DNA of 63,892 bases, counting the filler. It is 7 parts of 7 records of this genome, joined end to end, with 100 filler letters (N's around TTAATTAATTAA, not from the genome) between each part and the next. Parts side by side here need not be neighbours in the genome. Positions count along the whole stretch, not along the records: positions 58,202 to 63,892 come from SRR31156797_14339; 6 more parts are not named here. The stretch is one strand, 5' to 3'. The position numbers and the translations under genes were made by a program. Below are positions 58,202 to 61,015 of the stretch, in pieces (position 1 is the first letter of the stretch; every line of letters starts with the position of its first letter). A model generated the notes under the pieces. That model did no database searches. It was given only the letters and a program-made list of their open reading frames with translations, and was not told the DNA's origin.

Positions 58202-58799
58202 CGTGCTGGTCGGCATCAACCTGCTGCGCGAAGGCCTCGACATCCCCGAATGCGCCCTGGTCTGCATCCTGGATGCCGACAAGGAAGGTTTCCTGCGTTC
58301 GAAAACAAGTTTGGTTCAGACCATCGGCCGGGCCTCGCGCAACGTCGGCGGCCGGGTTCTTCTGTACGCCGATCACATGACCGACTCGCTCGATTACGCC
58401 CTTGGCGAAACCGCCCGGCGGCGCGAACGCCAGCAGGCCTATAACGAGGAACACGGCATCACCCCGGAAACGGTCAAGAACCGCATCTCCGATGTGTTGG
58501 ATTCCGTCTACGAGCAGGACCACTATACGGTCGATACCGGCGTTTCCGGCGACAAACACCTGATCGGCCATAACCTGAAGGCGCACCTGGCCGAGCTCGA
58601 CAAACGCATGCGAGCGGCCGCCGGCGACCTGGAATTCGAAGAAGCGGCCCGTCTGCGCGACGAGATACGTCGGCTCGAAGCAACCGATCTGGGCCTCGAC
58701 AAGGCCGGCGCCGCGCCGCGCGCCGCGGCTGCCGCCGGCTGGAAAGCCGACACCCGCAAGAAGCACAAGAAAAAACGCAAGATGCGGCTCGGGATGTAG
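58202..58799 (+). CDS. uvrB: Excinuclease ABC subunit B, 3' part
   Basis: [38 protein letters not shown] domain [13 protein letters not shown]. Confidence 0.96.
58739..58799 (+). repeat. Left copy of a 61-bp direct repeat (uvrB 3' end)
   Basis: 57/61 identical to 60863-60923. Confidence 0.9.
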
Positions 58800-60862
58800 G
58801 AGCAAATTGCGCGGTTTACTGAATTACAAATCGAACCCTTCGTTCTTTTCAATCGCAGATACTATCTTGACCACTTCTTGGCTTACCTCATGAAGCTTCA
58901 TATTTCGAGCCAAGGAAAGCGCCCCAAATGAAACATCAAATTCATTTTTCGACCAATCTGAGAGCTTGGAAATTACGTGCTTTCCTGGGCAAATATTTCT
59001 TCGACCCTCGAAACTCTTCCAACTCGACTCCACAATTTTTCTTGCTTTTTTGTTAGCCGTTGAAGACCCCTTTTTTTCTACGGCATTAATTTCATTAGAT
59101 ATGCTGTCAAATACATCATTTTTTGTTTCTTCGAATATTCGATCTATTTGTTTTATTATTTCATTTTTATCCGGTTTTTCTTTAGATGTTCTTTCAGAAA
59201 TATAACGATGTATTGCATCTGGCTCCAATATATAATTCTCTATTTCTTTCCGACTCCAAATATGCGTTTCAAGCCCATGTTCCTTTGACTCTTTTTTTAT
59301 TTTTTCATGGTCTGCGTCTGACCTGTAATCTGAATCTAGAATGCAGTAGGGACAAAGTGCCATATCCCCGGCTTTTCGTAGAGCTATAGCCGCACCGATC
59401 GCACGACGCCAATTTCCGAACCCTTCAATCGGAAAGCTGGGAAGTGATCCAATTGAGATTTGGGATTCAGGGAATACTATTCTATGGAAAGAATCTAAGA
59501 AATTAAGGTCATCACCTTCAATAATAATGCACTTTTTTGCAGCCCATAGTCTTGTAAGCTGGATGTTATGTACGCCTCCAATATTATTTATGACACTTTG
59601 AACTGTCGGTATTTTTTCCGCAAAATTCGATTTATCACTGTTTTTATCAACAATTAAAACGCTTTCTGGATTTACTTCTGAAAGAATTTCAAGGGAATGG
59701 GTAGCAATCATGGATTGGCCAAAGTGCCCCGCTACCACTCGCACGAGCTTCCGCTGAAGATCTGCATGCAAATATACATCCGGTTCATCTAGAACAATTG
59801 TCGATCTTTGATTGCATCTCGCTAAAAACCAACACGTTTGGAGCCATGCCTGTAAACCGTGGCCGACCCAACCAATCTCTGCCACGAATGGACCATCCCG
59901 CACCCAAAGATTAATCTCCCGAGGATTCTCGTTTAATATCTCCAGTCGGTCGATGCGCAAATGCGGCCACATCGATTCTGCTAACCGGGTAAATGCGACG
60001 TAACGCGAAGGATTTATTACCTCTCCATACTCTCCGAATTCTTCCTCAACTTCCTCGTAGGACTCATAAAAATAGTGGAGTTGGTTCCTAAAATGGTGTG
60101 GTGCCAAATTCGTACTTAGGTTCGCTCTCACATAATCCTCTTGAAGTACTCGCTCTCTGATATTTAGCCGCCCTACCGGTGGCAAAACGTTGATTTCATC
60201 GGCTTCGAAAATCTTTGCTTTTGCTCTCGATATAATAAGACCACCAGAAGGATCACGTAATACTGCAAAGATTTCTTCCTCTTTCGAATTGAGAAATATC
60301 TGAACAGTTTTTTTGTCAGAGAATTTTGCAGTGATGATTGCTGGTGGGTCGCCATACTGATGGCACAGATTTCGGTACTCAAAGTCGATTCCCCGTAGTG
60401 ATGGAGAAACCCCTATACCGGCATACGGGACATCAAGCCAATCAGGTGCCGCACGGAAATTTAGTCGGGACGACTTAGAAACAACTAAAGATATTAAAGT
60501 CAGCGCCTCAACAATAGTTGTTTTTCCAGCATTGTTTTTTCCAACGATAATTGTCTCGTCTCTAAATGGAACAACATGCTCTGAAAATCCTCGATAATTT
60601 TGAAGCTTGATCTCAATTATCATCGCCCCACCCCCTCGTACTCGCCAAACGAGCGATGGGTATTTTTTATCAATAAATAGAATCCATCAAGCCGTATTAA
60701 TTCTGTCGCTAAACGGCTCGCGAGCTAGTTGACGATAATTGGCAGTAGCTCATCCTCGTCTCCTCCCACACCAGTCGTTTCTAACGCTTGTCGGCCAATG
60801 TGTCGGATCCTGCGGGCGTTAGCAGGTGCACAGGATAGGCTCAGGCTGACCGCGGCGGCCGA
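58800..60862. mobile_element. AT-rich islet inserted at the uvrB 3' end (no integrase inside)
   Basis: Sharp GC drop right after the uvrB stop; bounded by the direct repeat. Confidence 0.65.
58824..60623 (-). CDS. OLD-family ATP-dependent nuclease (ABC ATPase + TOPRIM)
   Basis: GKNNAGKT Walker A, IVLDEPDVYLH Walker B/D-loop, IATHS H-loop, IIEG and ILDSD TOPRIM motifs, EIENY. Confidence 0.85.
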   Translation of the reverse strand: MIIEIKLQNYRGFSEHVVPFRDETIIVGKNNAGKTTIVEALTLISLVVSKSSRLNFRAAPDWLDVPYAGIGVSPSLRGIDFEYRNLCHQYGDPPAIITAKFSDKKTVQIFLNSKEEEIFAVLRDPSGGLIISRAKAKIFEADEINVLPPVGRLNIRERVLQEDYVRANLSTNLAPHHFRNQLHYFYESYEEVEEEFGEYGEVINPSRYVAFTRLAESMWPHLRIDRLEILNENPREINLWVRDGPFVAEIGWVGHGLQAWLQTCWFLARCNQRSTIVLDEPDVYLHADLQRKLVRVVAGHFGQSMIATHSLEILSEVNPESVLIVDKNSDKSNFAEKIPTVQSVINNIGGVHNIQLTRLWAAKKCIIIEGDDLNFLDSFHRIVFPESQISIGSLPSFPIEGFGNWRRAIGAAIALRKAGDMALCPYCILDSDYRSDADHEKIKKESKEHGLETHIWSRKEIENYILEPDAIHRYISERTSKEKPDKNEIIKQIDRIFEETKNDVFDSISNEINAVEKKGSSTANKKARKIVESSWKSFEGRRNICPGKHVISKLSDWSKNEFDVSFGALSLARNMKLHEVSQEVVKIVSAIEKNEGFDL

Positions 60863-60923
60863 CTGGAAAGCCGACACTCGCAAGAAGCACAAAAAGAAGC
60901 GCAAGATGCGGCTCGGGATGTAG
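60863..60923 (+). repeat. Right copy of the 61-bp direct repeat (orphan uvrB 3' end)
   Basis: Encodes the same [23 protein letters not shown] with four synonymous differences. Confidence 0.9.
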
Positions 60924-61015
60924 TCGCCCTCGTCCTTTCATGTCAGCCGTTGAGCCATACCCACAACGGGAGTATGGTTTTTGTCGCGGGTCGTCATTTA
61001 ATGGATGGATGAGCC

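Follow-up and report, generated by a model that had tools for sequence, protein, structure and literature searches.

How did a single gene of foreign composition, accompanied by no recombinase, come to lie exactly behind the stop codon of uvrB and between two slightly different copies of the end of that gene? The locus that raises this question is on the last contig (58202-63892) of the window, by which we mean the whole 63,892-nt stretch of metagenomic DNA that was analyzed, and the inserted gene is predicted to be a fused PARIS-type AriAB defence gene. Our best reading of the locus is that it is an insertion with long target duplication, one of a known though obscure kind (Furuta 2010), and we give a probability of about 0.5 to its having originated by host recombination, either through pairing in the end of uvrB together with a short-homology join in a run of alanine codons, or through a circle with one uvrB tail that crossed over with the resident one. 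What this case newly contributes is its PARIS-type AriAB cargo, the lineage of its host, and repeats whose divergence is allelic and coding-like.

The islet is bracketed by a direct repeat of 72 nt (65/72 identical, 90%; spacing 2124) that spans the last 23 codons and the stop codon of uvrB, and the other 10 families of direct repeats in 58203-61600 are all 12-24 nt long. Seven differences separate the two copies, six of them synonymous and one exchanging glycine for aspartate (Table 1). The initial annotation had reported a 61-nt core (58739-58799 and 60863-60923) with four differences, all synonymous, and weaker similarity over about 12 bp upstream. Codon comparison confirms the core, which is identical at 57/61 positions, the differences at 58754, 58769, 58772, and 58775 all being third-position transitions; the upstream extension, 58728-58738, has three differences in 11 nt. 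The final 24 nt of both copies are identical. The similarity ends on the right exactly at the TAG stop codon and on the left in the run of alanine codons, and left of the repeat no homology to uvrB was found (a local alignment of 60624-60851 against 58203-58727 scores 18, relative to a shuffle mean of 18.2). The right copy is readable solely as the end of a 64-codon open reading frame (ORF) with a TTG start (60729-60923), whose upstream part has no similarity to uvrB; we refer to it as the orphan copy.

The pattern of these differences bears on where the two copies came from. The probability of at least six synonymous differences among seven is 0.0005-0.002 if both copies drift freely, and 0.008-0.024 if the working copy is constrained while the orphan drifts neutrally (the ranges span transition biases from 1 to 8), which favors two alleles, each having diverged within a working uvrB. 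The sole non-synonymous change is in the orphan copy, in which the glycine that precedes a tryptophan is replaced by aspartate; this glycine is kept in 6/6 of the relatives' sequences inspected, and its loss in the orphan alone fits a copy that is no longer translated as uvrB. The proposal in the initial annotation that both tails evolved under protein-level selection is thus supported by the synonymous excess and tempered by this one replacement, as well as by the clustering of three of the changes (weighed below).

A terminator-like hairpin was found by folding behind the right copy, with nothing comparable behind the left, as had been noted initially; a strict terminator scanner did not call it. 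The right copy retains both this hairpin and the resident downstream genes, which supports the suggestion that the native tail and terminator were displaced by the islet.

Table 1. Features of the uvrB locus and linkers of the window. Positions count along the whole window; paired entries give the left and the right tail copy.
Feature	Position	Strand	Basis or description
uvrB 3' part, last 198 codons + TAG stop	58203-58799	+	Pfam UvrB 6e-20, UVR 2.4e-7, Helicase_C 1.6e-6
Left tail copy, working end of uvrB + stop	58728-58799	+	Direct repeat, codon comparison
Right, orphan tail copy, 23 codons + stop	60852-60923	+	Direct repeat, codon comparison
Tail difference	58730 / 60854		GCT / GCG, synonymous
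Tail difference	58733 / 60857		GCC / GCG, synonymous
Tail difference	58738 / 60862		GGC / GAC, Gly to Asp
Tail difference	58754 / 60878		ACC / ACT, synonymous
Tail difference	58769 / 60893		AAG / AAA, synonymous
Tail difference	58772 / 60896		AAA / AAG, synonymous
Tail difference	58775 / 60899		AAA / AAG, synonymous
Foreign islet, 2,052 nt (24 nt + AriAB gene + 228-nt 5' region)	58800-60851		GC, no uvrB similarity
Predicted fused PARIS-type AriAB gene, 599 aa	58824-60623	-	ABC ATPase ~1-340, DUF4435/Toprim nuclease ~345-599
Cassette 5' non-coding region	60624-60851		Shine-Dalgarno-like GAGGGGG (minus strand) just upstream of ATG
Terminator-like hairpin + U run, behind right copy only	60952-60982	+	Stem 60952-60980, loop ACAACG, then U's
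166-aa Cys-rich membrane protein, resident downstream gene	61016-61516	+	No Pfam or NCBIfam match
TRAP transporter genes dctM, dctQ, dctP 3' end	61529-63891	-	DctM 2.5e-60, DctQ 3e-11, DctP 4.8e-5 (Pfam); contig end
Linkers	8176-8275, 26962-27061, 36180-36279, 42423-42522, 52958-53057, 58102-58201

The islet itself has a guanine-plus-cytosine (GC) fraction of ~0.40 relative to a background of ~0.62; the fraction is 0.30-0.51 over the AriAB gene (58900-60700), compared to 0.61-0.67 in uvrB and 0.62-0.69 at 61000-61600. All other ORFs between the tail copies are 40-79 aa in length and lie inside the 599-aa ORF, and no recombinase, integrase, transposase, excisionase, relaxase, pseudogene, or backbone debris was identified in the 2,052 nt from the ORF list or by Pfam and NCBIfam searches. 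A promoter scan found no minus-strand promoter in 60624-60851, and nothing real was found among Rfam families or tRNAs in the uvrB-islet region. GC, ORF content, and the limits of the repeat consequently bear out the claim of a foreign, recombinase-free islet seated exactly at the uvrB stop codon. The cargo had been described as one AT-rich nuclease gene with no recombinase; it is indeed a single gene, although in place of a plain nuclease it is predicted to encode a fused ATPase-nuclease.

We name this gene a fused PARIS-type AriAB based on its PADLOC matches, its invariant motifs, the predicted AriB fold of its C-terminal part, and the published merged clades. The 599-aa protein matches Pfam AAA_15 (9.6e-24) and AAA_21 (3.6e-13), both in the ATPase part only, and its best PADLOC models are AriAB (3.7e-24, residues 272-526) and AriA (1.9e-23), with GajA (3e-16), Old (8e-16), and PtuA behind them. 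It belongs to a large family of single 580-600-aa proteins; of 8,000 candidates scored from a set of 5.8 billion proteins, 1,276 matched at E ≤ 0.001, the closest among the matches scored having 57% identity to it. Invariant in a 29-member alignment are the Walker A motif (G28-K34-T36), a DEPD motif (D279-E280-P281-D282), E369-G370-x-D372, and D430-x-D432. Residues 1-361 of the full-length model (predicted local distance difference test, pLDDT, 85.2) match ABC ATPase heads, with PtuA at Z 22, Rad50/SMC at Z 18-19, and AriA (8v46_B) at Z 17.3, which places AriA level with or below PtuA and Rad50 for this half. For a separate model of the C-terminal 255 residues, built with 29 homologues (pLDDT 91.9), the best match among 48,161 PDB representatives was AriB from the PARIS complex (8v46_D; Z 10.7, root-mean-square deviation 5.6, 213 aligned), followed by the OLD C-terminal region (Z 8.2), with Z 8 being reached by AriB and OLD chains only. 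Foldseek alone gave no match for this domain at E ≤ 0.001, its sequence profile matched nothing in the PDB, and the PDB profile match of the protein to OLD (6p74, 2.7e-17) is on the ATPase part.

In PMC11464382, AriA and AriB of PARIS are described as occasionally fused, with two merged ariAB clades, and the system as triggered by phage anti-restriction proteins, its nuclease then cutting host tRNA. The window protein is like PARIS in that an AAA_15/AAA_21 ABC ATPase and a DUF4435 Toprim nuclease appear to be joined in one polypeptide, whose halves, as modeled, match the AriA and AriB folds. Unlike PARIS, it stands in a bare chromosomal islet and not in a P4-like satellite or prophage hotspot, and it falls below Pfam DUF4435 (PF14491), which is matched by 16/29 of the aligned family members. 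OLD and Gabija GajA score lower than AriAB in PADLOC, as does OLD relative to AriB in the C-terminal fold comparison. By analogy, the cassette presumably confers defence of the abortive-infection type, its ATPase sensor releasing the Toprim nuclease as in PARIS, with a trigger and target like those of the family.

The locus belongs to an uncultured alphaproteobacterium, Rhodospirillales-like, of which only short metagenome contigs are known, and its relatives help to place the two tails. A partial UvrB (P0241) from a Rhodospirillales metagenome-assembled genome (NCBI, 3.9-kb contig) is 94% identical to the window UvrB and has the tail KPDV, while two ENA proteins at 89% identity (contigs of up to 94 kb) have the tails KPHE (P0242, ...GWKPHERKKHKKKHKTRLGM) and KPQD (P0243), and a further one at 85% (P0244, ENA) has a different tail. 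By these sequences, the tail type is a genus-level trait that changes fast at the protein level. Both window copies have KADT, which none of these relatives has, and thus they are probably sister alleles of one species-level lineage.

More distant relatives provided no second example. We listed 80 matches to the uvrB C-terminus in alphaproteobacteria, the best of those listed at 78-79% amino acid identity, and compared the downstream DNA (168-7,997 nt) in 79 of them. Neither the window tail type nor the window's downstream genes were found in the 80 listed loci, and a second tail copy was found in 0/79, the last 90 nt recurring only as chance matches of 12-21 nt; it was likewise found in 0/8 nearer relatives (78-84% amino acid identity). 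The nearest genomes (uvrB 80-82% nucleotide identity) have other tails and other neighbors. The tail pattern had 0 matches in viral contigs, tail patterns were found in none of 7, 1, and 2 family genomes or of 401 sampled genomes of the order, and the islet had no match in those 401 genomes. A strict 12-residue tail pattern found nothing in metagenomes, a search that is blind to the 89-94% relatives as these differ at those residues, and the literature on uvrB as an integration site yielded nothing relevant by title. Nothing in these loci, viral contigs, or titles supported the suggestion of the initial annotation that uvrB may be an unrecognised att site or a homology-driven slot for swapping defence genes.

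What lies behind uvrB in relatives varies. In G444 (84% amino acid identity) the genes that follow it are nfi, those of a LytS/LytTR pair, cstA, and part of dctM (family names being taken from the G466 copies), an order indicating that a loose uvrB...dctM neighborhood exists whose filling is variable. The dctM fragment of this genome (G444:C1; L185 6369-6779) comprises 136 C-terminal codons with 80% amino acid identity to the window's dctM, is ~5 kb behind uvrB, and in its position after nfi, lytS, lytT, and cstA resembles a rearranged remnant of a uvrB...TRAP neighborhood. In L001 (78%), genes for a CPBP protease and a HigB toxin of lower GC lie behind uvrB. Such downstream variation is ordinary at that distance and does not demonstrate a hotspot. 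In G466, the nearest sampled genome, whose TRAP genes are 78% identical to those of the window at the nucleotide level, the uvrB contig (L095 = G466:C158) stops inside the variable tail at 13910 (GWKPGKGAG), ~30 nt before the expected stop codon; neither a second tail copy nor a continuation was found elsewhere in the bin, and we draw no conclusion from this. The contig end may be due to chance, or to an assembly or binning break behind uvrB.

Closely related DNA was found in run X2, a seawater metagenome that contains relatives at two identity levels. A 407-nt contig matches 58271-58660 at 98.5% and contigs with TRAP genes match at 97-98%, whereas a deeper population is 87-92% identical to the window and has EAMDLGL in its uvrB, as does P0244. 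One contig of 910 nt from this run matches 60858-61200, where the right copy and the beginning of the 166-aa gene lie, at 96%, the match beginning within a few bases of the start of the repeat; its first 566 letters align nowhere on the window, neither with the islet nor with the window uvrB. These 566 letters may represent other cargo in the slot, the same cassette at <85% identity, or a more divergent uvrB allele. Over 58773-60857 the run has only short, low-depth pieces at 58963-59342, missing cover that is not evidence of the absence of the islet, and no joint skipping 2,124 nt was found among the 15 joints listed out of 18.

The AriAB family gene is rare (2/401 genomes of the class), was not found in viral contigs, and on plasmids was found in two Cupriavidus replicons only, at 25-28% identity. 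We asked of 51 loci with a complete gene and 250 nt or more on each flank (50 of 80 metagenome loci plus L081) whether up to 2.5 kb upstream matched up to 2.5 kb downstream. Flank-to-flank matches of at least 34 nt were direct in 6/51 and inverted in 6/51, and a repeat comparable to the duplicated gene tail was found in 0/51 of these other loci, leading us to reject the tail repeat as a habit of the AriAB family. The one direct repeat of comparable size, in L118 (493-566 / 4336-4409; 74 nt, 89%), is like repetitive extragenic palindromes and is not a gene tail. The 3.8-kb block that it encloses contains an IS200-type Y1 transposase gene, a putative HigB/HigA-like pair (from ORF reading), and the AriAB family gene.

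Insertions with long target duplication, as PMC2853133 describes them, are inserts of <20 kb flanked by direct repeats of >30 bp, with no other mobile genes and often with lower GC, and their repeats often span the stop codon, which keeps the target gene whole. Most of the cargo consists of restriction-modification genes, besides which an mcrA nuclease gene on its own and an orphan methylase gene have been found inserted in this way (PMC2853133, which lists Nobusato et al. 2000 as its reference 37). The uvrB locus is like this class in the length of its repeat and of its insert, in having no integrase or transposase, in its lower GC, in a repeat that spans the stop codon and leaves uvrB whole, and in having defence cargo with a nuclease. 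It differs in the likeness of the repeats, which in three cases of that class (43-47 of 46-47 bp; Furuta 2010) are more alike than the uvrB repeats; the nearly all-synonymous differences of the latter suggest two alleles rather than one copied target.

We propose that a cassette consisting of one gene and its own 5' region entered immediately behind the stop codon of uvrB and had no recombinase itself. The synonymous differences point to two uvrB alleles, in which case the cassette would have been brought in along with the uvrB end of its donor, a close relative. One allele would thus stem from this very close relative, in which the cassette already lay behind uvrB, and the other would be the resident tail, now an orphan, which retained the resident terminator and downstream genes. 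The insertion might have proceeded by homologous pairing in the uvrB end and a short-homology join in the GC-rich alanine-codon run (58726-58739 / 60850-60863), or a circular copy of the cassette with one tail might have crossed over once within the tail, and by either route uvrB would have stayed intact. Among the nearest known parallels are gene-turnover hotspots without integrases, situated between core genes, and the homology-facilitated illegitimate recombination that accompanies transformation. As at such hotspots, a defence gene would have entered between conserved genes via host recombination and flank homology; hotspot models alone, by contrast, leave no duplicated gene tail. It is the bareness of the islet, together with the negative searches for a uvrB-targeting element, that leads us to put host recombination highest.

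Several points weigh against this proposal. Neither an empty site nor a donor was found, so that the insertion is deduced from one contig, whereas the class of Furuta 2010 was defined with an empty site in a sister genome, and its cargo consists of restriction and modification homologues and not of AriAB. A repeat of 72 nt with seven mismatches and a longest identical run of 24 nt is a poor RecA substrate today; if there was a single crossover, the copies would once have been more alike, or the crossover would have fallen in their final 24 nt. Of the four core differences, three are found within 7 nt (58769-58775) and possibly represent one event, which would deprive the statistic of its force and leave ~4-5 events to argue for two alleles. 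Nothing shows DNA uptake by this organism, and with such a repeat in 0/51 AriAB family loci and 0/87 uvrB loci the insertion is possibly a one-off accident.

The same evidence has to be weighed under other origins. An unlikely one, though not an outlandish one, is that the islet is the remnant of a site-specific element, with the uvrB 3' end as attB, the tails as attL and attR, and the integrase lost or acting in trans. Decayed ICEs or IMEs can leave cis-mobilizable elements (CIMEs) at the 3' ends of protein or tRNA genes, fda in Streptococcus being an example. In PMC5704250, CIMEs are defined as having lost their integration and transfer genes while keeping attL and attR. The uvrB islet shares with CIMEs a segment free of recombination genes between copies of a gene 3' end, the working end being to its left and the displaced end to its right. 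This topology is that of 3'-end-targeting elements, whose block of identity extends from the crossover region as far as the stop codon and which provide the working tail while displacing the native tail together with its terminator; with an attP tail derived from an earlier host, synonymous-only core differences are equally expected. Against this reading, no integrase, excisionase, relaxase, or decayed backbone is present in the 2,052 nt, no related integrase-bearing element is known or was found at uvrB, none of the 79 + 8 listed uvrB loci (flanks up to ~8 kb) has a tail duplicate, viral contigs lack the tail pattern, and the literature titles on uvrB as a target were irrelevant. Quite unlikely, in our estimation, is a duplication in situ, in which the cassette entered once at a staggered or replicative break, the resident 72 nt being copied in the process, and the seven differences arose later in the lineage. 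This would be the literal meaning of an insertion with long target duplication (PMC2853133), and it requires no donor with the cassette at uvrB; KADT is common to both copies, and if 58769-58775 was changed in one event few events are left to explain. An untranslated orphan would nevertheless be expected to change at all codon positions, which is what the test above with one copy constrained and one free (P 0.008-0.024) speaks against, and a divergence of ~9% implies a long residence, yet the islet has kept its foreign GC and the orphan its intact frame.

Our preference for host recombination has itself a more ambitious version that we hold to be decidedly doubtful, namely that a recombinase-free unit, comprising a defence gene with ~60-70 nt of tail as an address label, circulates among close relatives as a circle or as a fragment taken up by transformation or from a gene transfer agent (GTA), inserts by RecA crossover, and rebuilds uvrB each time, making uvrB a swap slot; its one hint is the 566 unaligned letters before the right-copy tail in the 910-nt contig of run X2. 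It is very improbable that the locus is an assembly artefact, in which two strains or loci were misjoined in a metagenome contig. The window does consist of short metagenome contigs of mixed origin, the contig starts 597 nt before the islet, and one public run, X1, probably the source, has the whole stretch, with no second run having it in full. A different assembler applied to that run gave a single 5,622-nt contig identical to 58271-63892 (0 differences, single depth), which speaks against the misassembly of two strains envisaged in the initial annotation; being built from the same data, this contig is a check on the assembly and not independent support. The word length of the second assembler was 31, and the 24-nt run shared by the tail copies is shorter than this, so that they offer no common word for a false join; both junctions of each tail copy are in unique sequence, and no alternative joint at 58799 or 60851 was found among the joints listed for X1.

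The wider interest of the locus depends on how common its pattern is. Most catalogued defence islands are attributed to phages, satellites, integrases, or transposases, and how a single gene lands cleanly between core genes is less clear. The uvrB islet is a tidy specimen of the latter, with one gene of apparent PARIS type, an insertion at a stop codon, and two tail alleles that can still be read as protein. If tail-bracketed cassettes are common, their pattern could serve for locating them and for dating when they arrived, and host recombination rather than dedicated machinery would move a good share of the defence repertoire. The uvrB locus alone, without a sister genome, is an example rather than a principle, a good specimen but no discovery.

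Over 59153-59342 of the islet, the depth summed in the probable source run is 138.6, relative to 49.5 in the rest of the islet, and a contig diverges at 59307 within the AriAB gene; these observations suggest that another organism in the sample has something similar to that part of AriAB. The 166-aa protein encoded downstream has paired cysteine motifs (CARCPYPY and CPRCRNRACPF), and its gene is 96% conserved at the nucleotide level in run X2.

The window as a whole is not one molecule, as its seven contigs are joined by N44-TTAATTAATTAA-N44 linkers, and their GC in order (0.27, 0.30, 0.57, 0.31, 0.52, 0.51, 0.55) marks them as a clear mix of organisms, so that the adjoining contigs are uninformative about the uvrB locus. 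The uvrB contig follows a linker directly and begins inside the gene, which is why just its last 198 codons are present. The end of the preceding contig (58060-58101) looks on its minus strand like a 3' tRNA half, but ARAGORN finds no tRNA in 57500-63892, and a 63-aa DUF4177 gene (9.2e-12) lies on the minus strand at 57737-57928. The same contig contains, on the plus strand at 56149-57531, an ORF of 460 aa that combines a twin-arginine-like leader with a type I dockerin domain at the C-terminus (2.1e-5), together with a weak nitroreductase-family match (3.7e-4) that is below the cut-off, an odd combination of domains.

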